Of a DNA stretch of 64,000 nucleotides, positions 9,781 through 50,791 are shown one piece after another (position 1 is the stretch's first letter; every line of letters begins with the position of its first letter). The DNA comes from Mobula hypostoma (lineage: Eukaryota). The notes beneath the pieces are model-generated. The model made no database searches. It was not told the DNA's origin and worked only from the letters and a program-made list of their open reading frames with translations. The stretch spans positions 26,598,001 through 26,662,000 of the forward strand of contig NC_086108.1 of the NCBI RefSeq assembly GCF_963921235.1. The letters run 5' to 3'. Both the position numbers and the translations under genes were made by a program.

Positions 9781-10044
9781 GACCATAAATTTATTTTGAC
9801 TTTGCGACTTATCTCATCCCTCCCTTGCTCATCTTTATAAAGGCTCTCTCACCTTTCTACTCTGTTTTGCTGCAGCATTTCAACCCTTCCCCCCTCACAG
9901 GTGCTGCTTGATCTCCTAAATTCTTCCAGCCGATTGTTTATTGCTCCAAGTTCCAGTATGTGCTGTCGCTTTTTTCTCTTTTTTGGGTACATTGTTGGTC
10001 CTGCTGCAATTATTCAAGCAATTCTGATGTGGTCCCTCACACAG

Positions 10045-10267
10045 ATGAGTTCAAGACCTTTCTGAAGAAGCTGCCGACTGAGTATTTCCTGAACAGCTCC
10101 ACCATCCTTCAGCTCTGGACAATGGACTTCAGTCTCCAGCACCGCTATGAGCAACTGGAGGCCACTCTGAAGGTGCTCTTCAGCAAGGCACAGAAGACTG
10201 TCCGAAAGCTCTTCAGCCTAAGTAAGCGCTGCCAGAAACAACCGAAATTCGTCCTCCCCAGAGAAAG
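10045..10267 (+). CDS. BRINP2: BRINP2/BRINP3-type gene, penultimate coding exon (223 bp)
   Basis: Translates as (D)EFKTFLKKLPTEYFLNSSTILQLWTMDFSLQHRYEQLEATLKVLFSKAQKTVRKLFSLSKRCQKQPKFVLPRE(R), which is recognisably BRINP family. Acceptor cacacag|AT (phase 1) and donor AG|gtacat (phase 2) match the phase of the terminal exon. Paralog identity (2 vs 3) is uncertain. Confidence 0.9.
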
Positions 10268-10959
10268 GTACATGATATTCACACCCAGCAAACTGTAGTA
10301 ACTAAATAACTTTGCCTCCATTATTGACTCGCTATGAGGTTTGAAGGATAAGACTTGACTTTGCCACATAATATAAGGTTGGAAAAATAGATGATTTGGC
10401 TTAGAAATGAATAGTTGGTACCAGGTAACAGATCTTATAATTATTCCATAAAATAATCAATTGAAAGGTATTTATTTGCATTCATAGGAACTAGACAACC
10501 TGTAATGAATATTCTCCATTAACAACTACAGTATTAATGGTATTATACTGCAATATACATAGTATTAACTAATAATTATTCATATATGAAACTTGAAAGT
10601 AAACAAAATCCTTGAAAATTTATTGTATCTTTTATTTTGAACAAGAGGGGAGAGGTTTGCCAAACCTTGTAATGTTTTGAAATTTATATTTTAACTGATA
10701 TCTTTTTGTACATTTTGTTCATTCTGACTGCATGAAAATACACGTGTTTCAATATATTTCCTCATTCAATCCTTTGCTTACAGTTTTGAGGGTATACTGC
10801 CTCATCCCTTACCTCTGATGATTTTCTAATGCACCCAATCTCTGGCAATTGCATTTTCACAGCTGGACCCAAAAATACTGTATATTGCTTTGTTGAATCA
10901 CTTTTCAACTAGCTTTTGTTTGTGCAACTTTGAACTGAATTCTACTCTGCAGGGCTGGT

Positions 10960-16011: not shown

Positions 16012-16609
16012 TGTCATCACCCTTAATAAAATGAATAAATAAGTAGCTAAAATAACTAGGCCCAGACTCTTACAACTCAAACATTCTTTTTATTTTACTT
16101 ATGCACAAGGAGAACAGCATGGACCCTGTCACCACACTGTTCTGAAATCTGAACAGAAAACCGCAATATTTATACAGAATTGGCTTATCAGTTATGGATA
16201 TTGATCATTGTAAATTGTATATTTGTGAATTCATAAAATCAATCGCCATTACACTAGAGGTGTTAAAGTCAATCCAAACTTCAAGTGGACAGTCGAGGAT
16301 ATTTTGAAGTTGGTAACAACAAAACAGACTCAGTTTTTTAGATATGTTTCACATCCTTCTGTTATCTTGTCCGTCTCTGGCACCCTTCAATGTGTAATGG
16401 AATGCTATGTTTTAGGATGATCTTTCTGTAAGGGTTGCAACTACAGTCGCCTCACTCATCAGGCTTGGGTACACATTGTCGCAGTGAACCCAGCCTATTT
16501 CATCAGTAGTAAGCAGAGGAGTCTCTGGTGGTCTTGTTTCGAAAGTCTCAGTTGCTACAACTGCCTCAGGCCATCCTTGCTTTAACCTTTGCCTACTGCA
16601 ACTTGCACA
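16012..16609 (-). repeat. ERV 3' LTR (about 600 bp)
   Basis: On the - strand it starts TG right after the polypurine tract aaagaggagggggagggaa (16610-16628). It has TATAAA (about 16170) then AATAAA (about 16090) and ends ...gatgaCA. Confidence 0.7.
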
Positions 16610-16832
16610 TTCCCTCCCCCTCCTCTTTGTCCTGTAGAGGACAACACTAATCTTGCTGAATTTCAATAGCACAGTCTCTGAAGCTCTGTGACAGTTTCAT
16701 CAGGGACAGGGTGCTGTTGGTATCAGGGATGTATGTGCAACACACCTGGTACAAGGACTACCTCTCTTAGACAATACAAAGTCAGGTGCAAGTCAATTTC
16801 GGGGGCCACATCATGGACTGGCCGCATTTCGT

Positions 16833-17633
16833 CAGTCATAGTAGTCATACTTTATTGATCCCGAGGAAAATTGGTTTTCATTACAGTTGCACCATAAATA
16901 ATTAAATAGTAATATGTAAATTATGCCAGGAAATAAGTCCAGAACCAGCCTATTGGCTCAGGGTGTCTGACCCTCCAAGGGAGGAGTTGTAAAGTTTGAT
17001 GACCACAGGCAGGAATGATTTCCTACGACGCTCTGTGTTGCATCTTGGTGGAATGAGTCTCTGGCTGAATGTACTCCTGTGCCCAACCAGTACATTATGT
17101 AGTGGATAGGAGACATTGTCCAAGATGGCATGCAACTTGGACAGCATCCACTTTTCAGACACCACCGTCAGATTGTCCAGTTCCACCCCCACAACATCAC
17201 AGGCCTTACAAATGAGTTTGTTGATTCTGTTGGTGTCTGCTACCCTCAGCCTGCTGCCCCAGCCCACAACAGCAAACATGATAGCACTGGCCACCACAGA
17301 CTCGTAGAACATCCTCAGCATCGTCTGACAGATGTTAAAGGACCTCATTCTCCTCAGGAAATAAGGATCGCTCTGACCCTTCTTGTAGACAGCCTCAGTG
17401 TTCTTTGACCAGTCCAGTTTATTGTCAACTCGTATCCCCAGGTATTTGTAATCCTCCACCATGTCCACACTGACCCCCTGGATGGAAATAGGGGTCACCG
17501 GTGCCTTAGCCCTCCTCAGGTCTACCACCAACTCCTTAGTCTTTTTCACATTAAGCTGCAGATAATTCTGCTCACACCATGTGACAAAGTTTACTACCGT
17601 AGCCCTGTACTCAGCCTCATCTCCCTTGATGAT
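16833..17633 (-). mobile_element. Rex1/Babar LINE, 5'-truncated, inserted in the ERV env
   Basis: WCEQNYLQLNVKKTKELVVDLRR...YKYLGIRVDNKLDWSKNT...RKSFLPVVIKLYN, with an (atgact)-type tail. Confidence 0.9.
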
Positions 17634-18167
17634 GTCATTGATGAACTGGCTCGTGTCATGTAGTGCTAAGGCTATGTTAGTAGCCAGTTTCTCCAGCAGT
17701 GCTGAGGCAATGTTAATGCTTTCATGAGCCATTTTGTTGAGTTCCCAGAGCAGGAACGCTACAATCCAGAGACACTCAGTGCAACCCACATTAGAATGTA
17801 GAAAGAGAGTGGGCCGGTGGTACATCTGTGGTACTACACAGGCCCAGCAGAATTACCCCTCCATGGTTTTGGTTCGGACCAAAACTCCCATTATAGAAAG
17901 GGTAACTTGGCAGCCAGTGATATCCACATAGCTGGTAAGTACCTTTAATGGGATTCAGAGGGTCACCGGTAGTATAGACATTGTACTTACTGTTACCTAA
18001 GTCTAGTCCCGTCCCTTGAAGATTACAATAACACATTTCACCTCCATCCCCATATAGCAACTTCAGAGCGGGGGGTTATTCAATCATTGCAACTCCTTAC
18101 AGTAATAATTTTGTTATTAAAGTATAACACAGAATCAAATTCACTAGGATCCAGGGGTATAAATGTA

Positions 18168-18848
18168 AGGAGGATTTTCCCACTTGCAGGAGGGAGGAGA
18201 AGATGGTGGCGCGACGCAGCGCGCGCGGCCATTCCGAATGAATATCGTATGTGTAACTAGGGGGCCTTGCACAATCCGGATTTGATGGAGACAGCCGTGA
18301 GAAGCACGGAGGAACACCTGGAGTAACTTCTGAAAAGCCTGCTTCGCCGCCGCTGCTACTGTGCGATCGAGAACCTCTGGAGACGAAGACCCCAAATCCT
18401 CGGCTTTGCCTATTGCCTGTTGCCGGGGCTGGGGTCGCAGCGCTCGGCAGAGATGGTGCTCGGTGCTCGGTGCTCGGTGTCGGAGAGCTGGTCGGAGGCT
18501 CAGAGTTTTCAGACGGACTCAGAGTTGGACTGTGGTCGGATGCTTCCAGGATGCTGCATCGGCAAGTTGGCGGCGCTGGATGTTTACCGTCTGCGTGAGA
18601 TGATGGGACTTTCGAGAGACTTTGAAACATTTACTGTGCCATGGTCTGTTCTTATCAAATTATGGTACTGCTTTGCACTGTTGTAACTATATGTTATAAC
18701 TATGTGGTTTTTGTTAGTTGTTAAGTTGGTTTGTCATGTGTTTTCATGATATCATTCTGGAAAAGCATTCTATCATTTCTTAATGCATGCATTACTAAAT
18801 GACAATAAAAGAGGACTGCGTGTCCTCATAGTCTAATCTTATCTAATC
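18168..18848 (+). mobile_element. Non-autonomous CpG-rich retroelement with (aatct)n tail and 8-bp TSD
   Basis: taaatgta at 18160-18167 and 18849-18856. 5' aagatggtggcgcg motif; aataaa before the tail; no credible ORF. Confidence 0.75.
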
Positions 18849-19443
18849 TAAATGTATTGGCAATCTACGTTCTGAATGTACAGACATTCTCTAGAGCACA
18901 CCAAACAACCTGGCCAATTAGTATGTGACACATGTTCATAACTAAGGTGAAGAAAAACTTTAGGAGCAGTCGTGTCTTGGGATACTTCTGCATTTAGGCA
19001 GAAAGTAGATGTCCAGATTACCCGAAACTTGTAATGCATAGTGATTACTTAATAGTGGTGGCAACTAGCAAAGTTCAAGAGTTCAGTCCATTTGTCCTTA
19101 TCATCATGGTTCTTCCAGCCACCTGCTTCCAGGTCCAGTGGCACTGTTAGCTTAACGTGCAAGGCATATATCCACAATGGCTTTACATGGACCTTTAAAG
19201 CGCTATACGTGGTCAGCAACACTTGGAATGGATTTTCCCACAGGCAGTTCTTTCATCAGTAGACTCTTACCAGTACACAAACTCCTGACTGGTAGATCTG
19301 ACACTCTGCAGCAAGCATGATCTTCTGGGCTTCAAGTACCTGTTAATGAGAAACTTTAAGAGCTTTTATTAGAAACCATAGAAAAACTACAGTACAGAAA
19401 CAGGCCTTTTGGCCCTTCTTGGCTGTGCCGAACCATTTTCTGC

Positions 19444-22371
19444 CTAGTCCCATTGACCTGCACACGGACTATATCCCTCCATACACCTCCCATCCATGTA
19501 TCTGTCCAATTTATTCGTAAATGTTAAAAAAGAACCCGCATTTACCACCTCGTCTGGCAGCTCATTCCATACTCCCACCACTCTCTGTGTGAAGAAGCCC
19601 CCTCTAATGGTCCGTTTAAACTTTTCCCCCCTCACCCTTAACCCATGTCCTCTGGTTTTTTTCTCCCCTTGCCTCAGTGGAAAAAGCCTGCTTGCATTCA
19701 CTCTATCTATACCCATCATTATTTTTTATATATCTATCAAATCTCCCCTCATTCTTCTACGCTCCAGGGAATAAAGTCCTAACCTATTCAACCTTTCTCT
19801 GTAACTGAGTTTCTCAAGTCCCGGCAACATCCTTGTAAACCTTCTCTGCAGTCTTTCAACCTTATTTATATCCTTCCTGTAATTTGGTGACTAAAACTGA
19901 ACACAATACTCCAGATTCGGCCTCACCAATGCCTTATACAACCTCATCATAACATTCCAGCCCTTATACTCTATACTTTGATTTATAAAGGCCAATGTAC
20001 CAAAAGCTCTCTTTACGACCCGATCTACCTGTGACGCCACCTTTAGGGAATTTTGTATCTGTATTCCCAGATCCCTCTGTTCTACTGCACTCCTCAGCGC
20101 CTTACCATTAACCCTGTATGTTCTACCTTGGTTTGTCCTTCCAACGTGCAATACCTCACACTTGTCAGTATTAAACTCCATCTGCCATTTTTCAGCCCAT
20201 TTTTCCAGCTGATCCAAGTCCCTCTGCAGGCTCTGAAAACCTTCCTCACTGTCTACTACACCTCCAATCTTTGTATCATCAGCAAACTTGCTGATCCAAT
20301 TTACCACATTATCATCCAGATCATTGATATAGATGACAAATAACAATGGACCCAGCACTGATCCCTGTGGCACACCACTAGTCACAGGCCTCCACTTGGA
20401 GTAGCAATTCTCTACTACCACTCTTTGGCTTCTACCATTGAGCCAATGTCTAATCCAATTTACCACCTCTCCATGTATACCTAGCGACTGAATTTTCCTA
20501 ACTAACCTCCCATGCGGGACCATGTCGAAGGCCTTACTGAAGTCCATGTAGACAATATCCACTGCCTTCCCTTCATCCACTTTCCTGGTAACCTCGTCGA
20601 AAAACTCCAATAGATTGGTCAAACATGACCTACCAGGCACAAAGCCATGTTGACTCTCCCTAATAAGTCCCTGTCTGTCCAAATACTTGTAGATTCTGTC
20701 TCTTAGTACTCCCTCCAATAACTTACCTACTACCGATGTTAAACTTACCGGCCTATGATTTCCCAGATTACTTTTCAATCCTTTTTTAAACAACGGAAAA
20801 ACATGAGCCACTCTCCAATCCTCCGGCACCTCACCTGTAGACAGCGACATTTTAAATATTTCTGCCAGGGCCCCTGCAATTTCAACACTAGTCTCCTTCA
20901 AGGTCCAAGGGAACACCCTGTCAGGTCCCGGGGATTTATCCACTTTAATTTTCCTCAAAACAGCAAGCACCTCCTCCTTTTCAATCTGTACAGTTTCCAT
21001 GATCTCACTACTTGTTTCCCTTAATTCCATAGATTTCATGCCAGTTTCCTTAGTAATTACAGACGCAAAAAACCTATTTAAGATCTCCCCCATTTCCTTT
21101 GGTTCCGCACATAGCCGACCACTCTGATCTTCAAGAGGACCAATTTTACCCCTTATAATCCTTTTGCTCTTAATATACCTGTAAAAGCTCTTTGGATTAT
21201 CCTTCACTTTGACTGCCAAAGCAATCTCATGTCCTCTTTTAGCCCTCCTGATTTCTTTCTTAAGTATTTTCTTGCACTCCTTATACTCCTCAAGCACCTT
21301 ATTTACTCCCTGCTTCCTATACATGTCATACAACTCCCTCTTCTTCTTTATCAGAGTTGCAATATCCCTTGAGAACCAAGGTTCCTTATTCCTATTCACT
21401 TTGCCTTTAATCCTGACAGGAACATACAAACTCAGCACTCTCAAAATTTCTCCTTTGAAGGCTTCCCACCTACTGATCACACTTTTGCCAGAGAACAACC
21501 TGTCCCAATCCATGCTTTTTAGATCCTTTCTCATTTCTTCAAATTTGGCCTTCTTCCAGTTCAGAACCTCAACCCTAGGACCAGATCTATCCTTGTCCAT
21601 GATCAAGTTGAAACTAATGGTGTTGTGATCACTGGAACCAAAGTTCTCCCTTACACAGACTTCCGTCACTTGTCCTAACTCGTTTCCTAACAGGAGATCC
21701 AATATTGCATCCCCTCTAGTTGGTCCCTGTATATATTGATTTAGAAAACTTTCCTGAACACATTTTACAAACTCTAAACCATCTAGACCCCTAACAGTAT
21801 GGGAGTCCCAGTCAATGTATGGAAAATTAAAATCCCCTACCACCACAACTTTATATTTCCTGCTGTTGCCTGCTATCTCTCTGCAGATTTGCTCTTCTAA
21901 TTCTAATTGACTATTGGGTGGTCTGTAATACAATCCCACTAATGTGGCCATACCTTTCCTGTTTCTCAGCTCCACCCACGAGGACTCAGTAGACAAGCCC
22001 TCTAATCTGTCCTGCCTGAGCACTACTGTAATATTTTCCCTAACAAGCAATGCTACTCCCCCACCTTTCATTCCTCTGCCTCGATCACATCTGAAACATC
22101 AGAACCCTGGAATATTAAGCTGCCAGTCCTGCCCCTCCTGTAGCCAAGTTTCACTAATTGCTATAATGTCATAATTCTACATGTCAATCCACGCCCTCAA
22201 CTCATCCGCCTTCCCCGCAATACTCCTAGCATTGAAATATATACACCTCAGAAGATTTTTACCACCACTCACAACCTTTCTATTAGCGGATTTGCTTGAA
22301 CTTTTAACATCATTTATTTTCACCCCAGCCACACTGTTAGCTCTGGCACCCTGGTTCCCATCCCCCTGCAA
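19444..22371 (-). pseudogene. CR1 ORF2 (AP endonuclease + reverse transcriptase) with about 4 in-frame premature stops
   Basis: YFNARSI, GDFNFP, SDHN, YMDFSKAFD, GVPQGSVLGP, KFADD. Segments 22177-22371, 19891-22071 and 19444-19719 share one frame. Confidence 0.92.
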
Positions 22372-22373
22372 AT

Positions 22374-23342
22374 CTAGTTTAAAGCCTCCCCAGTAGCACT
22401 AACAAACCTCCCTGAAAGGATATTGGTCCCCCTGTAGTTCAAGTGTAACCCGTCTCTCTTGTACAGGTCCCACCTGCCCCTGAAGAGGTCCCAATGATCC
22501 TGAAATCTGAAACCCTGCCCCCTACACCAGTTCCTCAGCCACTTGTTCCTCCTCCAGAGCATCCTATTCCTACCCTCACTGGCACCTAGCACAGGTAGCA
22601 ATCCTGAGATTACTACCCTGGAGGTCCTGCTTTTCAACTTCCTACCAAGCTCTCTATACTCACTCTCCAGGACCTCCTCACTCTTCCTTGCTATGTCATT
22701 GGTACCGATGTGCACCACGACATCTGGCTGATCACCCTCCCACTTCAGAATGTCATGCAATCGATCAGAGACATCCTTGACCCTGGCACCTGGGAGGCAA
22801 CAAACCATCCTGGATTCTCTGTCACGACCACAGAACCTCCTATCTATACCTCTAACTATCGAGTCCCCTATCACTACCGCTCTCCTCTTTTTCCACCCTC
22901 CCTTCTGCACTGCAGAGCCAGACTCAGTGCCAGAGATCCGGCTACTGCATCTTGTCCCAGGTAAGTCACCAGTCACCCCCCCAACAGTATCCAATGTGGT
23001 ATACTTGTTGTTGAGGGGAATGGCCACAGGGGAACCCTGCTCTGCCTGCCCTTTCCTCTTCCCTCGCCTGACAGTGACCCAATTTCCTATCCTCTGCTCC
23101 TTTGGCATAACTACCTCCCTGTAGCTACTATCTATAATCTCCTCATTCTCCCGAATGATCCGCAGGTCCTCCAGCTCCTGCTCCAGTTCCCTAACGCGGT
23201 TTGTCAGAAGCTGCAGCTGGATGCACTTCTTGCAGGTGTCGTTGTCAGGGACACTGGAGGGCTCCCTGACTTCCCACATCCTGCAAGAGGAGCATTCCAA
23301 CATCCTGCCTGGCATTCTCTCTACTCTAAACAATCTGAACAA
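22374..23342 (-). CDS. CR1 ORF1p (zinc finger, coiled coil, SGNH esterase); probable ATG at 23315
   Basis: CSSCRMW...CKKC, VRELEQELEDLR, VIGDSIVRG, HIGTND, DGLHLN; the frame is open. Confidence 0.88.
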   Translation of the reverse strand: MFRLFRVERMPGRMLECSSCRMWEVREPSSVPDNDTCKKCIQLQLLTNRVRELEQELEDLRIIRENEEIIDSSYREVVMPKEQRIGNWVTVRRGKRKGQAEQGSPVAIPLNNKYTTLDTVGGVTGDLPGTRCSSRISGTESGSAVQKGGWKKRRAVVIGDSIVRGIDRRFCGRDRESRMVCCLPGARVKDVSDRLHDILKWEGDQPDVVVHIGTNDIARKSEEVLESEYRELGRKLKSRTSRVVISGLLPVLGASEGRNRMLWRRNKWLRNWCRGQGFRFQDHWDLFRGRWDLYKRDGLHLNYRGTNILSGRFVSATGEALN

Positions 23343-23699
23343 AAAACTTACCGGAACCTACCCTGGTCTCTGCCTGGTCTCGCCGAAGCCTATTGAGCCA
23401 AAGCCATACCACTCTGACTCAGTCCACTCCGACGATGGCTGCTACAACGATGGCCACTGTATATGGCGGTCTGTTTTTAAACCTTGGCGCGCTACGTCAC
23501 GCGCCTGCGCAGTGCAGACCCTTCTCCCCGAGCAGTGTTTAAAAAAATGACTTTTTCTACCCGATTTCTTCACTTCCTTCTCAGCTGCTTGCTTCGACTG
23601 AAACAAGAACTGTTGAAAATATTCTCTTTTTAAACCTTGGCGCGCTACGTCTATACAATGCTAATGCTATACAATAATGCAACATGCCTTTGCTCATAA

Positions 23700-25650
23700 T
23701 ATGGATGTCCATCTGTTTAATTAAAAGGGTGGGGTGACTGGCAGGCGCATGAGATGTCCCAAACTATCTCATGCGGAGATAGGCCTGATACGCAATTTGG
23801 AGCACAGAGCATTGTCATTGGGGCCAGTGGAATTGCCTTCAGCCACTTTATCTCAGTGTTATTGTGCAATTTAGCTAACCTGTTTTTCAGAGCCCCGTTC
23901 TGTCCTTCAGCTTCCCTGTAAGATTGACAGTGGTAAGGGCAGGTGAAATACAAGGCCTTTGTTAATTTCTATATAACTTTACCTGTAAAGTGAGGACTAT
24001 TATCGCAAGATTTTTCTCAGGGATCCCAAACTTAGAAATAAATTCTTAGAATAAAATTTAGCAATAGTTACAGCACAACTTCTCTGAGTTTGATGACCTT
24101 CTACCCACGTCTATAACAACACAATAACAGGTGCATAATCACAACCCATACACAGACATCCCACCTCCCCTGGAAATTGCGGGAGTCTCCCGCATATTGA
24201 TAGCGGCTCCCTGATGCCCGCAAATTATATACAATATCCCAGAAATCGATTTTTTTGAAAGCGAGCGAGAGAGAGAGAACGTGGGAGCGAGAGAGAGTGC
24301 GAGAGAGAAAGAGAGCGTGAGAGAGAGTGTGAGAGAGAGAGAGAGAGAGAGAGCAAGAATGAGTGCGAGAACGAGAGGGAGTGCACGCGTGAGAGAGAGA
24401 GAGACCGCTATGGCAGAGTGTTCCAAAAAAATATATAAAATGTACTTCACCCCACACTACACTAAAGTGTGCCCCTGCCTAATAGGGGTCAAAATAATGA
24501 CAGTGTTGCTCGCTGCACTGTTTGCAACAGTGACTTTTCTATTGGCCATGGTGGGTTAAGACTGTAAAAGACATGTTGAGGTGAGTTTAACAGGTGTCAT
24601 TTGTTCATTAGCATAGCTAATGTATTTAAGCTAGCTGGCTAGCTGCAAAGGAGCTACTCTATTGCAGACATCCCACCGCTCCCGGAAGTTCCGTGAGTCT
24701 CCCGCAAGTTGATGGTGCTACCTCCCTGAAATTAATTTTTGTAGGGTGGGATGTCTGCATACATTTAGATAACTCCATGAAGTTCATTTGGAGATGCACA
24801 GATAACCTCCTGAGGGAGGGCCCAGTGGCTGGCAGCAGATACCAGCACTGTCTTTTGGGATTATGTCTTTGGCAAATCATACGGTTGCTGCTACTTTTCT
24901 TGTGATAGTGGAGAATCCCTCATTCTCGATTATCCCCTCACCCTTCATGATATTGCGCATAGTGTGCTTCAGTTCATAAATTGCTTTCAGCCTCTGATGC
25001 ATCACATTGTAATTAAACTAGTTCATCAAAAGATTTTGGAAAGTATTGGCAGCCTGATCTCACAAGAGTGTTACATGGCCAGAAATATCTGCTGTTGCTG
25101 CCTTAGCAAATGAGTCAGCTCGTTTGCTCCCTCTAGTCATTTCATCATTCCCATTTGTATGAGCTACATAATTATAACAGCAATTGTAGTAAGTAATTGA
25201 AAAGCAAGAAAAGATTCAGAGTTAGTTCACCGTGTTTTATCAGAGTTCTGAGAGGTGAGAAACTCACGTAGTTTCCTTAATTGTCCATTGTCATGTGCTA
25301 CTCCAAAGGCATAATGATAATCAGTGTCCCTGCTGCAAGAGAGCAGGCTTTTGTTACGGCAAAAATGGCTTGAACAAATAATTTGAAGTAAACTGCATAG
25401 TCTATGGTGATGGTGGAGAGGGAGGCAGAAACTGCCATTAAAGGGCATCTTTGAACCCAGTGGCCAGGCTGTCTGCAAACAAAAACATGCCCCTCATGGG
25501 CATCCCCATGTCCGCTGTCCCACTTCCATGTTTGTTGGATCAAAGAACTGTAAAACCCACTGAGAATTTATTTCACATTTAGAATAGTTTTATCTACACT
25601 GTTCAAAACAAAAATTACCAGTCACAAGCAGGTAATGTTAAGCAGGCAAG
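23700..25650 (-). pseudogene. ERV pol remnant (RNase H + integrase); C-terminus continues at about 19140-19369
   Basis: ORFs 25227-25478, 24659-24880 and 23717-23953. Removing the 24153-24757 element restores FMELSKCM|GCDYAPVIV...WVEG in frame. Confidence 0.85.
24153..24757. mobile_element. Non-autonomous DNA transposon with 13-bp TIR and 6-bp TSD
   Basis: TIR cagacatcccacc...ggtgggatgtctg; TSD cataca at 24147-24152 and 24758-24763. Contains a GA-rich tract and an internal copy of the left end at about 24665. Confidence 0.88.
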
Positions 25651-26108
25651 AGCTGTCACTTGGCATGGGCCTTGTTGTAGCCATGCCTAGTAAAGACAGG
25701 GTACAGCACCCAGTTCATCTTCAGCTGCTAGTGCTTCTTTTCAAATACTGAGGTGGACACTTAACATTTGCCTGTTTTTTCTGTGTCTTTTACTTCTTTA
25801 ACTTTTGCTGACTTACTCTGCATTTTACAGGATTCATCCAAACGGTTTGCACTTCACATCTTCATTAAACAAACACAGGCCACTCTACAGTCTTCTCACA
25901 TTTTCCATTCTCTAACAACAGTCACTTATTCCACCATACAATATAATTCTCAACATATACAATGCTTTTGGTCCATAATGTATAAATATGTACACTACTG
26001 GAGTTCTTTATACACACATACACACGTGCACACGCGCGTACAATTACGCACATTTTGGAATTCATTTTTTTGAAACAGCACTTAGCAAATTCTCCTGTGC
26101 TTCATGTG

Positions 26109-27833
26109 GGACCATAGCAACACCTCATGTGGGCTCCAACCCAGACCATGGCAACACCTTATATAGGCTCCAACCCGGACCATAGTAACACCTCATGTAG
26201 GCTCCAACCTGGACCATGGTAACACCTTATATAGGCTCCAACCTGGACCATGGTAACACCTTATATAGGCTCCAACCCGGACCATGGTAACACCTTATAT
26301 AGGCTCCAACCCCAACCCAGACCATGGTAACACCTTATATAGGCTCCAACCCAGAACATGGTAACACCTTATATAGGCTCCAACCTGGACCATGGTAACA
26401 CCTTATATTGGCTCCAACCCGGACCATGGTAACACCTTATATAGGCTCCAACCCGGACCATAGTAACACCTCATGTAGGCTCCAACCTGGACCATGGTAA
26501 CACCTCATGTGGGCTCCAACCCAGACCATGGTAACACCTTATATAGGCTCCAACCCGGACCATGGTAACACCTTATATAGGCTCCAACCTGGACCATGGT
26601 AACACCTTATATAGGCTCCAACCCGGACCATGGTAACACCTTATATAGGCTCCAACCCCAACCCAGACCATGGTAACACCTTATATAGGCTCCAACCCAG
26701 AACATGGTAACACCTTATATAGGCTCCAACCTGGACCATGGTAACACCTTATATTGGCTCCAACCCGGACCATGGTAACACCTTATATAGGCTCCAACCC
26801 GGACCATAGTAACACCTCATGTAGGCTCCAACCTGGACCATGGTAACACCTCATGTGGGCTCCAACCCAGACCATGGTAACACCTTATATAGGCTCCAAC
26901 CCGGACCATGGTAACACCTTATATAGGCTCCAACCTGGACCATGGTAACACCTTATATAGGCTCCAACCCGGACCATGGTAACACCTTATATAGGCTCCA
27001 ACCCCAACCCAGACCATGGTAACACCTTATATAGGCTCCAACCCAGAGCATGGTAACACCTTATATAGGCTCCAACCTGGACCATGGTAACACCTTATAT
27101 TGGCTCCAACCCGGACCATGGTAACACCTTATATAGGCTCCAACCCGGACCATGGCAACATCTTATATAGGCTCCAACCCGGACCATGGTAACACCTTAT
27201 ATAGGCTCCAACCCAGACCATGGTAACACCTTATATAGGCTCCAACCCGGACCATGGCAACATCTCTTGGAGGCTCCAACCCGGACCATGGTAACACCTC
27301 ACGTAGGCTCTCCAACCCGAACCATGGCAACACCACATGTGGGCTCTAACCCGGACAATGGGAACACCTTATGTAGGCTTCAACCCATACCAATGCAAGC
27401 CCACATGCGGGCTCCAACCTAGACCATGGCACACCTCATGTAGGTTCCAACCTGGACCATGGCAACACCTCATGTGGGCTCCAACCCGGACCAGGGCAAC
27501 CCCATATGTAGGCTTCAACCCAAATGGCAACACCACCTGCTGGCTCCAACCCGGACCATGGCAACACATCATGTGGGCTCCATCCCGGACCATGGCAACA
27601 CATCATGTGGGCTCCAACCAGGACCATTGCAACACCACATGTAGGCTCCAACTAGGACCATGGCAATACCTTAAGTAGGCTCTAACCTGGTCCATGGCAA
27701 CACTCATGCGGGCTCCAATGCAGACCAGGGCAACACCTCATGTGGGGTCCAAACCAGACACTGACAATACCTCAAGCGGGCTCCAACCCATAGGACAACA
27801 CTTCTTGCAGTCTCCAACCCAGACCTTGGCAAC
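26109..27833. repeat. 34-bp tandem array (about 50 units) with 346-bp higher-order repeat
   Basis: Unit ggaccatggtaacaccttatataggctccaacc(c/t). The marker aaccccaacccag ends at 26320, 26666 and 27012. The array degenerates towards the right end. Confidence 0.95.
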
Positions 27834-27899
27834 CTTGTCTTTTTTTAAGCACTTCAGATTTCCTATGCTGGTGATTAAGGTGGTGTACACTGACCACTG

Positions 27900-30232
27900 C
27901 ATACATGAAGAGATTTGTGTTCCAGCAATAGATTCAGTAGAGTAGCAGTGGTGTAGTGTGTTTGGACCCCTAGTAAAACAGGTTACATGCTGGTAATAAT
28001 TGGGCAGGGCTTCCCAAGACTGCATTTTGCCAAGTCGGGCCATTGTGCTGTACTCCTACTACCTTCATACGGACAGAGCCTAAAAATCAAGGCTCCAGAG
28101 ATCAAGACAAGTAAGAAATGGTTGCAGGAGGCAAAGGGATGGTTACAGGATTCAGTGTCAGTGGACTGGGTCATGTTCAAGAACTCATCTGAGGACCTGA
28201 ATGATTACACCTGGGTCATAACAGACTATACTAAAACAGGTGTGGATGAGTGTGTTCTCACAAAATCGTTCAGGGTTTACCCCAATCAGAAGCCCTGGAT
28301 GAATCATGGAATCTGAAACCCGCTGAGAGCCTGATCAAAGGCATTCAAGTCTGGAGATCAAGAAGCTACAAGAGGTACAGGTATAATCTCCAGAAAGCCT
28401 TCTCATGGGTGAAGTGGAAATTGGAATCAACAAGGGATGCTTGACAGCTGTGGGAGGGTTTGAATGCGATAACCTCCTACAAAGTTAAATCTTGTGACAT
28501 AAGGGACAGCAGAGCTTCACTTCCAGATGAGCTCAGAGCTTTCTATGTTTGCTTTGACCACCAGAACAGGGAGGAACCATTGCACCTCCCATGTCGCCCA
28601 GTGATCCTTTGGCCTCAGTATCTGAAGGTGACATACAGGCTCTTTGCAAGAGTGTAAAGACTCCAAGAGTGAATCCAAAGACTCCAGTCTGGATGGAGCA
28701 CCTGGCCAGATACTGAAGATCTGTGCTGACCAACTGGCTGTTGTGTTCATGGATATCTTCAACCTCGTGCTCCGGTAGCGTGTGGTACTCACCTGCTTCA
28801 AGCAGGCTTCAATCATACTGATGTCCAAGAAGAGTGTGGTGAATTGCTTCAATGACTATCAATCACCTAGTGGCACTTACATCCACAGTGACGAAGTGTT
28901 TTGGGAGGCTGATGTTGAAGCATATCAGCTCCTGTCTGAGTGATGACTTGGACCTGCTCTAATTTGCATACTACAGCAACAGGTCTACAATAGATGCCAT
29001 CTCATTGGCTCTTCACACAACATTGGAACATCTGGACAGCAGAGATGCATACATCAGGATGCTCTTTATCCGATTACTGCTCAGTATTTAATACCATCAT
29101 CCCCTCTAAACTAATCAGTAAACTCCAAGACCTGGGCCTCAATACCCCCTTGTGAAATTGGATCTTGGATTTCCTCAGTTTGAATTGGCAAAATATCTCC
29201 TCCACAATCTCCATAAGCACAGGAGAAGCACAGGGACATATGCTTAGCCCCCTGCTCTGCTCACTTTACACCTATGACTGTGTGGCTAAGTACAGCTCCA
29301 ACACCACATACAAGTTTGCTGATGACGCCGCTGTTGTGGGCCGTAACAAAGGGGGTGATGAATCAACATACAGGAGGGAGATTGAAAACTTGGCTGAGTG
29401 GCGTTATAACAACAACCTCTCACTCAATGTCTATAAGACCAAGGAACTGATTGTAGAATTCAGGAGAGGGAAACCGGAGGTCCATGAGCCCATAATCATC
29501 AGAGGATCAGCGGTGGAGAAGGTCAGTAACTTTAAATTCCTTGGTGTCACAATCTCAAAGGACCTGTCCTGGAACAGTCACAGAAGTATAATTGCAAAGA
29601 AAGCACAACAGCACCTCTAATTCCTCAGCAGTCTATGGGGATTTGGTAATGTTATCAAAAACCTTGGCAGACTTCTATAGAGGGGTGGTAGAAATTACGT
29701 TGACTGGCTGCATTATGCCTTTGAACAGAAAATCCTACAAAAGATAGTGGATTCGTCCCAGTACATCATGGGTAAAGCCTTCCCAACTACTAAGCACATC
29801 TACATGAAACATTGCCATGGAAAAGCATAATCGATCATCAAAGATTGTCATTACCCAGGCTATGTTCTTTTTGCATTACTGCCGCAAGGTAGAAGGTACA
29901 AATGCCTCAGGACCTGCACCAGCAGGTTCAAGAACAGTTACTACTGCTCATCAGGCTCTTGAACAAAAGAGGAAAACTACACTTGTTCTATTTCTGGTAT
30001 TTCCACAAGCAATGGTCTCACTTTAAGAACTTCTTATCTTGTTATTTCATGCTCTCATCATTTATTTATTGCTATTTATTGATATTTCCATTACACAGTT
30101 TGCTGTTCATTGATCCTGTTTTGTTACTGTTCTATAAATTTGCCGAGTATGCCCAGAGAAAAAAGAATATCAGGGCTGCACGTGGTGACATGTATGTACT
30201 CTGATAATAAATTTTACTTTGAAATTTGAAAT
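27900..30232 (+). mobile_element. Rex1/Babar LINE, decayed (endonuclease end + RT + tail)
   Basis: HFAKSGHCAVLLLPSY, YPNQKPWMN, LSPLLCSLYTYDC, KFADD, LNVYKTKELIVEFRR; tail aataaattttactttgaaatttgaa. Confidence 0.88.
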
Positions 30233-30472: not shown

Positions 30473-31037
30473 TGTAACACTTAGGTTCGGCGGGCGGCGT
30501 TAGTCCAGGGGAAGACAGTCTTCAGCTTCGCCAAACTTGTGAAATCTCGTTTGTGTAGATTCTGCATGATGTGTTACCCTATTACAAAGCAGCACCACGA
30601 AATATTAGGCAGTACACCATATGCAATTAAACGATTGAGCTTTATAGTTCTTAATTTGACTATAGGGTTAGTAAAGAAAACAAAAAGAAGAAGGGCCCAT
30701 GTTAATGAAACAGTCTAATGCGCACGTTGGAGCTCACAATTTTCCTGTCTGTTAGTTCTCCGTCGATTTCCCCCAGGCATCGTCGACTCCCAGACCCATT
30801 CCAACTCCACTCAGTCCTGCAGTCTACGACCTCTCCTTTCTGGCATCTTCTCTCTCCATCTTCCGCCAAAAAAAAAGACCACAAAACCCTCGCTCTCGGG
30901 CACACAAGAAAGAAAAAACATGTCTCTCACTGGATGGCGCACATTCCAAAACTCCCGTTATCTCTAGTCATAACCCAAACACTGCAGCTACAGAGAAACC
31001 ATTATATTAGCAGTGAAACCTTTCCCAGGGTGTTACA
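30473..31037 (-). mobile_element. Solo LTR of the same Gypsy family as 34164-42715
   Basis: tgtaaca...tgttaca termini; TSD caat at 30469-30472 and 31038-31041. The reverse complement matches ggtttcactgctaat...gggttatgactagagataa. Confidence 0.9.
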
Positions 31038-34163: not shown

Positions 34164-34746
34164 TGTAATGCGCTGTAAGGTTTCACTGCTAATGTAATGG
34201 CCTCTCTGTAATGATTCACTGCTAAGGTAGTGGTTTCTCTGTAGCAATGCTTGGGTTATGACTAGAGATAACGGGGGCTTTGGAATGTATGCTAGCCAAT
34301 GAGAGGCATGTTGTTCTTTCTTGTGGGTCTGGGAGCAGGAATTTCGCAGGTCTTTTGTCGGCGAGAGATGAAGAGGGAAGACGCGAGTGGAGAGAGTTGG
34401 TAGACCACTGGATGGAGTGGACTAGGAGCAAGGGTTCGTAGGTCAGCAACGCTTGGAGGAGGTTGATGGGGACAAATGGACGAATTTGTGAGCTCCAACG
34501 CGCACATTAGACCATTTCATTAAAATAGGCCCTTTTTATTTTCTTTACTAACCCTGTAGTCAGATTAAGATTTATAAAATCCAATCATTTAATTGCATAT
34601 TGTGTAGTGTCTGATATTTTGCGGTTTGGATTTGTAACCAGGCAACACATCACGCAATATCCACACAAACGAGATTTCTCAGTTTGGCTGGGTCAGAGGC
34701 TGTCTTCCCCTAGACAAACACGTGCTGGCCGAACCCCAGGGTTATA
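34164..34746 (+). repeat. Gypsy 5' LTR
   Basis: Direct repeat of 42157-42715, with a short internal duplication near its start. Confidence 0.9.
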
Positions 34747-40640: not shown

Positions 40641-41367
40641 ATAGTCATAGTCATAGTCATAGCCATACTTTATTGATCCCGCGGGAAATTGGTTTTCGTT
40701 ACAGTTGCACCATAAATAATAAATAGTAATAGAACCATAAATAGTTAAATAGTAATACATAAATTATGCCAGTAAATTATGAAATAAGTCCAGGACCAGC
40801 CTATCGACTCAGGGTGTCTGACCCTCCAAGGGAGGAGTTGTAAAGTTTGATGGCCGCAGGCAGGAATGACTTCCTGTGACGCTCTGTGCTGCATCTCGGA
40901 GGAATGAGTCTTTGGCTGAATGTACTCCTGTGCCCACCCAGTACATTATGTAGTGGATGGGAGACATTGACCAAGATGACATGCAACTTAAACAGCATCC
41001 TCTTTTCAGACACTACCGTGAGAGAGTCCAGTTCCATCCCCACAACGTCACTGGCCCTACAAATGAGTTTGTTGATTCTGTTGGCGTCTGCTGCCCCAGC
41101 ACACAACAGCAAACATGATAGCACTGGCCACCACAGACTCATAGAACATCCTCAGCATCGTCTGACAGATGTTAAAGGACCTCAGACTCCTCAGGAAATA
41201 GAAATGGCTCTGACCTTTCGTGTTCTTTGACCAGTCCAGTTTATTGTCAATTCGTATCCCCAGGTATTTGTAATCCTCCACCATGTCCACACTGACCCCC
41301 TGGATGGAAACAGGAGTCACCGGTACCTTAGCTCTCCTCAGGTCTACCACCAGTTCCTCAGTCTTTT
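40641..41367 (-). mobile_element. Rex1/Babar LINE 3' fragment, same family as 16833-17633
   Basis: Closely similar sequence and (agtcat)n tail on the + strand. Confidence 0.9.
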
Positions 41368-42156: not shown

Positions 42157-42715
42157 TGTAACACGCTGTAAGGTTTCACTGCTAATGTAATGGTTTCTCC
42201 GTAGCAGCAATGTTTGGGTTATGACTAGAGATAATGGGGGCTTTGGAATTTATGCTAGCCAATGAGAGGCATGTTGTTCTTTCTTGTGGGTCTGGGAGCA
42301 GTGATTTTGCAGTCTTTTGTGGGCGAGAGATGAAAAGGGAAGACGCGAGTGGAGAGAGCTGGTAGAACACCAGACGGAGTGGACTAGGAGCGAGGGTCCG
42401 AAGGTCAGCGACGCTTGGAGGAGGTCGATGGGGGACGAATGGACGAATTCCTGAGCTCCAGCGCGCACATTAGACTATTTCATTAAAATGGGCCCTTTTT
42501 CTTCTTATTTTCCTTCCTCACCCTATAGACAGATTAAGATTTATAAAATTCAATCATTTAATTGCATACGGTGTACTGTCTGATATTTTGCAGTTCTGAT
42601 TTGTAACCGGGTAACACATCACGCAGCATCCACACAAAGGGGATTTCTCAGTTTGGCTGGGCCAGAGGCTGTCTTCCCCTAGACAAACTCGTGCTGGCTG
42701 AAGCTCAGGATTACA
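42157..42715 (+). repeat. Gypsy 3' LTR
   Basis: tgtaac...ttaca, following the PPT. Confidence 0.9.
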
Positions 42716-49540: not shown

Positions 49541-49677
49541 AATACTTTCATTTCATGATGTTCCTGACAAGTTGGATTATTTTTGGGTATAAAGGAGCTT
49601 TGCCAATGCAAGTTGCTGTTTGAATGGTGTGCACTTTTATCTTAACATGGTGTTTGGTTTGTGTTTCCTCTCCACAG

Positions 49678-50791
49678 GGCCATGACCTATTGGCTAAACC
49701 GCGTCCAGTCCTTCTTGTACTGCACAGACAACAGCCTGGCCGGGATCTTCTCGGAGGAGAGCCGGAGCTGCACCTGCCCCTACGACCAGCTGAGCTGCCA
49801 GAAGCCCATCCCGTGTGTGGTGGGTGAGGGGACATCCTGTGTGGTGTGTGCGGCCGATAATCGCACCCGCTGCGGTGGCTGCAACGAGGGCTACATGCTG
49901 GCCCAGGGGGCTTGCCGGCCGGAAGTGGCAGACTCCACTGAGCAGTACATTGGCTTTGAGACCGAGCAGGACCTGCGGGACATGGAGATTAGGTACCTGC
50001 TGCAGAAGCGAGATAGCAAGATCATCGTGCCGGCCATCTTCATCAGCAATGACATGCGCCTCAACAGCTGGTTCGATCCCTCCTGGAGAAAGCGCATGCT
50101 CCTAACACTGAAGAGCAACAAGTACAAGACCAATTTTGTCCATATGATCTTGGGCATGACCATACAAATCTGTTTGACTAAAAATAGTACCTTGGAACCA
50201 GTGCTGGCTATCTATGTGAATCCCTTCGGAGGTAGTCACTCAGAGAGCTGGTTCATGCCCGTCAATGAAGACAACTACCCAGACTGGGAGCGGACTAAGG
50301 TGGATGTGCCTCTTCAGTGTTACAACTGGACTCTGATACTGGGCAACAAGTGGAAGACCTTCTTTGAAACGGTCCACATCTATTTGAGGAGCCGCATCAA
50401 GTCCAGCGGCAATGAGAGCCTGTTCTATGAGCCGCTAGAGTTCATCGACCCCTCCAGGAATCTGGGCTACATGAAGATCAGCCACGCCCAGGTGTTCGGT
50501 TACAGCATGCACTTCGACCCTGACGCCATTCGGGATTTGATCCTGCAGCTGGACTACCCGTACACACAGGGCTCGCAGGACTCCGCCCTGCTGCAGCTGC
50601 TGGAGATACGAGACCGAGTGAACCGCCTGTCCCCCTACAGCCACCAGCGGCTGGACCTCTTCACCTGCCTGCTCCGCCATCGGCTGAAGCTGACCACCAG
50701 TGAGGTGGTCAGAATTCAAGCCTCCCTCCAGGCCTTCAATGCCAAACTCGTCAACCCCGTCGAAAATGAAACCACCAAATTATGCAGTTAA
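49678..50791 (+). CDS. BRINP2: BRINP2/BRINP3-type gene (BMP/retinoic acid-inducible neural-specific protein), terminal coding exon
   Basis: Polypyrimidine tract plus tccacag|G joins AG+G to give Arg, then AMTYWLNRVQSFLYC. Cys-rich region, FISNDMRLNSWFDPSWRKRMLLTLKSNK, VNPFGGSHSESWFMP, and C-terminus ETTKLCS-stop. Family assignment is firm; BRINP2 vs BRINP3 is ambiguous. Confidence 0.95.

Follow-up and report, generated by a model that had tools for sequence, protein, structure and literature searches.

An endogenous retrovirus (ERV) found on the minus strand of the Mobula hypostoma genome is very probably a dead member of a multi-copy class I family that lacks protease, reverse transcriptase (RT) and the membrane anchor of Env, and that spread via the proteins of fuller relatives. 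The copy lies in the window, i.e. the whole stretch of 64,000 nucleotides analysed here. It is a real, old and dead provirus of a known kind, and the non-autonomous ERV family that it represents is possibly unnamed. The literature searched, in which few subscription journals were covered, yielded no description of the family and none of ray ERV families devoid of RT.

The element displays the retroviral order on the minus strand: zinc knuckle, RNase H, integrase, env, purine tract and LTR. This agrees with the original prediction of an env-bearing ERV in the correct order, as pol, env, purine tract and LTR were all found. The 3´ LTR (16012..16609, 598 bp) runs from TG at 16609 to CA at 16012, and the same sequence is present at both ends of sibling copies. 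It is preceded by a polypurine tract (16610..16628), recognized by its sequence and occupying the same position in siblings. The env gene is split into the end of the transmembrane subunit (TM), with the immunosuppressive domain (ISD) and a CX6CC motif that is frameshifted in the window (16629..16832), the C-terminal part of the surface subunit (SU) together with the N-terminal part of TM (17634..18167), and the env start with a CxxC-type motif, CLVC (18849..19095). Only 127 nt separate the CC of CX6CC from the LTR, and the membrane anchor is absent, a point not mentioned in the original account. The integrase comprises a C-terminal domain (19096..19369; MLVIN_C, E 5.9e-7, over the cut-off) and a broken catalytic core (23651..24152; pol profile match at 24010-23753, 64 bits). 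An RNase H remnant and the integrase N-terminus follow (24758..25365; pol-profile matches at 25325-25227 and 25164-25033). The predicted YAFGxxH motif is present as YAFGVAH in the RNase H piece, while the predicted WxGPxxVLLTT reads WENPFQVLLTT, with VLLTT kept and the G of WxGP changed. Taken by themselves, the pieces of env, RNase H and integrase core from the window matched no Pfam family.

Further upstream, still on the minus strand, lie the point at which protease and RT were lost throughout the family, with a private deletion of ~230 nt (25366..25441), a gag zinc knuckle (25442..25480; Pfam zf-CCHC_2, E 3.5e-4, below the cut-off) and a 5´ remnant of gag (25650..26010). About 600 nt of gag, seen in siblings between the 5´ remnant and the knuckle region, are missing in the window. 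A 34-bp tandem array within the leader (26109..27824) is located upstream of gag in eight other loci too, and the leader remnant beyond it (27835..27960) is common to other copies. Thus, of the proposed limits 16012..26050, the start is right, at the CA of the LTR, but the element reaches ~27960, through the array and the leader. No second (5´) LTR was found anywhere in the window, and the primer site is likewise lost past ~27960. The array comprises ~50 units in the window, 2.3 kb in the copy L049 and <130 nt in L031, and therefore expands and shrinks after insertion.

The copy is interrupted by four younger insertions, which were correctly predicted: sibling copies are uninterrupted across all four sites. 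Insertion 1 (16833..17633, minus strand) is the 3´ end of a LINE, which we take to be Rex1/Babar-like, with an ALKBH8_N match (E 1.2e-9) and a second copy at 40781; it is absent from siblings. Insertion 2 (18168..18848) is a high-copy repeat with an 8-bp target duplication, and is lacking in organism F, a contig of which joins 18159 to 18849. Insertion 3 (19370..23650, minus strand) is a full-length CR1-type LINE with an esterase ORF1 and an endonuclease-RT ORF2; siblings join 23659 to 19372 at this site. Insertion 4 (24153..24757), also absent from siblings, is a non-coding element that has terminal inverted repeats of 13 bp as well as a GA run. Elsewhere in the window lies another LTR retrotransposon, Gypsy-like by eye. 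Its paired repeats (34243-34744 and 42206-42713; 88-94%) enclose gag-pol-like frames, and an inverted copy of the repeat is present near 30538-31022.

The host gene is BRINP3. Its penultimate coding exon (10041-10283, plus strand) was located by Pfam, with the matched part up to the GT donor at 10041-10267, and its last coding exon (plus strand; 49658-50788 in one delimitation, 49678-50791 in another) by Pfam, splice sites and comparison with BRINP3 proteins. The assignment follows from the 93% identity of the last exon to a Chiloscyllium BRINP3-like protein, with 85% to BRINP3 of the elephant shark; these values also mark the host as an elasmobranch. As both exons are on the plus strand on either side of the element, the minus-strand ERV is antisense in the last coding intron, as originally claimed. 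This antisense position may reflect selection against sense insertions. Two further family copies, L015 and L050 (C67, 35.93 and 35.97 Mb), are antisense to a second BRINP gene, 50-90 kb from its last exons.

Judged by its sequence, the element is a class I ERV with an epsilon-like pol and a gamma-type env, in line with the class predicted for it. The nearest intact proteins are ERV pols with 50-54% identity over the integrase core, namely unnamed ERV pols of Malaclemys terrapin (P0001, P0002), Latimeria (P0003, P0025), Pelodiscus (P0112) and Pleurodeles (P0056, P0103). Those of Malaclemys and Latimeria are the nearest, with the softshell turtle and newt proteins close by. All of these elements come from other hosts and are neighbours of the family by phylogeny. 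A preliminary quick tree, built from 101 integrase rows, shows the family as one group (SH-aLRT 92) with an in-genome sister adjacent to it (88); the turtle-coelacanth-newt group is next after the sister, joined at SH-aLRT 83 only. This tree places the family near these ERVs, while WEHV1 (P0020) belongs to another group; the deep nodes are weak, and the placement of pol comes from the integrase only. The best Foldseek match was the Gag-Pol of WDSV (38%, E 0.019), obtained from a weak model (pLDDT 62), and no match reached E 0.001. WDSV is thus the best named structural match to the family, weakly, and differs from it in that the family env is gamma-type and is not accompanied by accessory ORFs. 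A search of viral contigs with P0002 confirmed nothing.

The env gene adds to this assignment. The window's env piece alone does not match TLV_coat, but four of the five siblings tested do (L039 at E 8.6e-8, over the cut-off), at profile positions 420-490 of 560 and with CX6CC present. The features of a gamma-type Env were found, i.e. ISD and CX6CC in TM and CxxC in SU. The env reaches the purine tract, with no further ORF and no accessory gene seen. The traits of Epsilonretrovirus (accessory genes and a non-gamma Env) are therefore absent, as the env is gamma-type and no further ORF is present. A homologue search with a 101-aa sibling env frame gave none among 44 candidates. That the element could instead be a Gypsy/Metaviridae member with a chance env-like stretch has a practically negligible probability. 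Only a general integrase likeness speaks for it (Ty3 at E 4e-4 among 32 PDB hits), whereas the best proteins, at 50-54%, are vertebrate class I ERV pols rather than the Gypsy best hits named as a refuting outcome, MLVIN_C and TLV_coat are matched, CX6CC is present in siblings, and the best Foldseek match, from the low-confidence model, is WDSV Gag-Pol. The pol relatives, the integrase tree and the sibling TLV_coat matches rule this identity out.

The accessible text of bioRxiv 10.1101/2021.11.23.469661 describes ERV-EA of amphibians and fish, with an epsilon-like pol, a gamma-type env and no accessory genes, and reports ERVs with gamma-type env in six cartilaginous fish, with >500 copies in three. 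The window's family resembles ERV-EA, as there described, in its epsilon-like pol, its gamma-type env with ISD and CX6CC and the lack of a visible accessory gene, but its dominant form lacks protease-RT and the Env anchor. The lineages of that preprint, as far as its accessible text goes, may include the family. Clade Mu (PMC6001957) and the elephant shark lineages CmiERV II and III (PMC4422223) fall, by the accessible parts of these papers, in the same broad class I group, as do WDSV and WEHV1. PMC6001957 also describes a scattered distribution of cartilaginous fish ERVs across the phylogeny, with turtles acting as hubs of transmission.

At the genome scale, the integrase piece has at least 196 candidates (40 were scored, 72-82% identical) and the LTR at least 1705 (40 scored). 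With hundreds of such loci, the element is not hidden at this scale, contrary to its original description. A 10-kb stretch was read around each of 59 family loci picked by integrase likeness; as this sampling favoured likeness to deleted copies, the ratio of deleted to full copies is biased. L035, a near-duplicate of L031, was excluded from the integrase codon and stop analysis, the integrase DNA tree and the env motif-distance test. Siblings with two LTRs exist, such as L031, with the order LTR-gag-pol-env-PPT-LTR and TG...CA LTRs. Ten LTR pairs have a K2P of 0.13-0.31 (median about 0.22), based on local alignments that likely understate the divergence. The tree of the 59 integrase pieces is star-like, with end branches of median 0.17 and a bootstrap that had not settled. 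After the 5´ LTR, the primer site matches the host tRNA-Gln at 13-16 of 18 positions in 7 of 11 copies; only 4 of 2000 random stretches did so. By eye, a 4-bp target duplication flanks the solo LTR L120, and three of four positions agree at L121. L112 is a 2.9-kb derivative made up of LTR, leader, gag start, env end and LTR, without pol.

The absence of protease and RT characterizes a large non-autonomous family as a whole and does not stem from local decay. The pol profile found no own RT or connection domain in the 59 loci, while the same profile finds RT in neighbouring families. The only RT match, in L050, was rejected as a nested element, because it lies inside the L050 integrase. Weak blast pieces point to a decayed connection region in L073, the DNA of which has a full-length match only to itself. 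The distance from knuckle to RNase H is 224-338 nt in 13 of the 19 measurable copies (450-2179 in the other six). Compared with the longer copy L160, the sequence of the main group breaks off just past the knuckle and resumes where RNase H begins. L073, L157 and L160 are intermediates that keep the protease (Pfam RVP, E 1.8e-7 in L160) and have lost the RT core. Most of gag-pro-RT is missing from the window's copy, as originally noted, but that account did not show that the loss of protease-RT is common to the family. Many dispersed copies share inactivating deletions, as befits a non-autonomous ERV family.

The main family also has no membrane-spanning anchor, as the ~250 nt holding it are deleted. 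In 20 of the 31 copies matched, CX6CC and the LTR stand at the same short distance as in the window, and the best hydrophobic 19-mer scores <=1.65 in eight copies, versus 2.4-3.2 in the full envs of other families. As the family lacks both protease-RT and the TM anchor, all enzymes would have been needed in trans.

Fuller copies were sought, as originally suggested, and RT-bearing loci with the window's LTR were found in the genome, all of them now broken. Protease DNA led to L162, a relic with RT that has 73% identity to L160 over 1387 nt; the neighbouring stretches read contain neither its downstream part nor an LTR. Its RT matches 16 loci, itself included, 10 of which were read. The window's LTR is present in 8 of these 10, at both ends in one (pair K2P 0.21). 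Past CX6CC, five of the six RT-bearing loci examined hold ~150-280 extra nt, with a hydrophobic stretch of 2.3-2.9 in four. L160 and L162 also share, with a younger family, ~200 codons between protease and RT that match no Pfam family and may encode a 2H-phosphoesterase-like domain.

The integrase indicates that the template of the deleted copies was broken. The out-of-frame length in the integrase core is the same in 20 of 29 copies (two are in frame), and two stops recur, one in 24 of 45 copies and the other in 27 of 55, without a CpG-decay pattern. These shared lesions imply that the template was already dead at the time of spread. Against this, third codon positions are slightly more variable than second ones (0.22 vs 0.17), which may reflect CpG or alignment bias but could indicate some selection. 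Moreover, the shared stops neither co-segregate (Fisher p 0.14-0.54) nor follow the weakly resolved tree, and their retention by about half of the copies would fit ~17% later decay of a template stop. At the site of the shared frameshift all four RT-bearing copies with a scorable integrase are in frame, and none of the four has the second shared stop; the first is present in one of four, and a third stop, adjacent to the frameshift, in two of four. In a tree of 35 rows, the 18 deleted copies tested group as a single clade (99/96) with the RT-bearing ones outside, and the end branches are similar. It is very unlikely that each copy was inserted as a full provirus and lost RT and anchor afterwards at deletion hot spots. 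Several different RT deletions do exist in the lineage (L073, L160/L157, L062 and L063, with L112 lacking all pol), so the region is deletion-prone, but the members of the main group form one clade and have the junction, the env deletion, the frameshift and the stops in common, which largely refutes separate losses.

A further possibility, also very unlikely, is that the deleted form made a useful product during its spread, either integrase in cis or a secreted, anchor-less Env, and that its parts were kept for this reason. The integrase is near full length and its catalytic residues are often retained (D in 39/46, D in 42/57 and E in 48/58 copies), the sister family also lost RT and kept its integrase, and the TM ectodomain is in one frame. 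Against a useful product stand the frameshift and stops shared inside the integrase core, and the env, which shifts phase past the CxxC motif and has in-frame codon columns dominated by stops (2/62, 1/33 and 1/47), some of which may be CpG sites. The motif-distance test of the env frame was underpowered, with only 0-7 copies per pair. It is conceivable, although rather doubtful, that RT-less ERV parasites that keep the integrase arise repeatedly from epsilon-like parents in this genome (this family, its sister family and single copies of a third lineage), that the integrase-env stretch, as the retained integrase was already broken in the template, contains an undescribed cis-acting RNA or DNA signal for packaging or copying, and that RT screens would miss most copies of such families in cartilaginous fish.

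Spread in trans, the favoured explanation, would have started from a template without protease, RT and Env anchor and with a broken integrase, which would have given rise to many copies. Its passenger RNA would have been packaged in trans, either within cells or by way of pseudotyped particles, and copied and integrated by proteins of fuller relatives sharing the LTR. The cis signals (LTRs, purine tract and tRNA-Gln primer site) were kept and partners with the same LTR exist, although broken themselves. The RT-bearing relics, of similar age, are the likely helpers, as most of those examined still have the anchor and are free of the shared frameshift; since none is intact, helper status rests on the shared LTR and the age. 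HERV-H, IAP and VL30 are defective ERV lineages that spread in this manner, through complementation. Complementation is also how the accessible text on mule deer CrERV (PMC8662619) explains deletions that are shared in the presence of fuller relatives of comparable age; CrERV lineage B resembles the window's family in carrying one deletion in many copies with fuller relatives of similar age. In that text CrERV-B lacks part of SU only, while the window's family lacks protease-RT and the TM anchor and is far older. In zebrafish, non-autonomous ERVs and >2,000 RT-less elements are reported in the accessible part of PMC8672886.

Runs of other organisms hold the stretch, and contigs from B, F and H among these organisms span the junction of the flank with the LTR end. 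Organism H differs from the window at 70 of ~855 letters, and the insertion, common to B, F and H, is therefore older than this ~8% split; the LTR divergence suggests that the family is ~2.5 times older still than the split. An absolute date from the shark rate assumed in the accessible text of PMC4422223 (2.2e-10 a year) was rejected, as the resulting ~490 million years is not credible, and PMC10587355, in its accessible part, offers only a per-generation rate. An absolute age is not defensible.

A sister ERV family (L099 and L129-L148; at least 175 candidates) has another LTR and another deletion. Its RT core is gone in 18 of the 20 loci read and kept in two, with the integrase retained; it lost RT separately. 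A third lineage (L088, L095 and L098) also lacks RT. In a younger class I family, L082 (1898-5068, minus strand) has a stop-free frame of 1057 aa spanning RNase H, integrase and env, a single ORF that holds rve, MLVIN_C and TLV_coat; the same deletion in the region of the connection domain and RNase H occurs in L082, L085, L086 and L091.

The family and its RT-bearing relatives provide a well-resolved pair of parent and parasite ERVs, with stages of deletion, from a thinly sampled vertebrate class. Surveys anchored on RT would undercount such elements. Furthermore, the insertion and the younger elements nested in it constitute presence/absence markers among related species.
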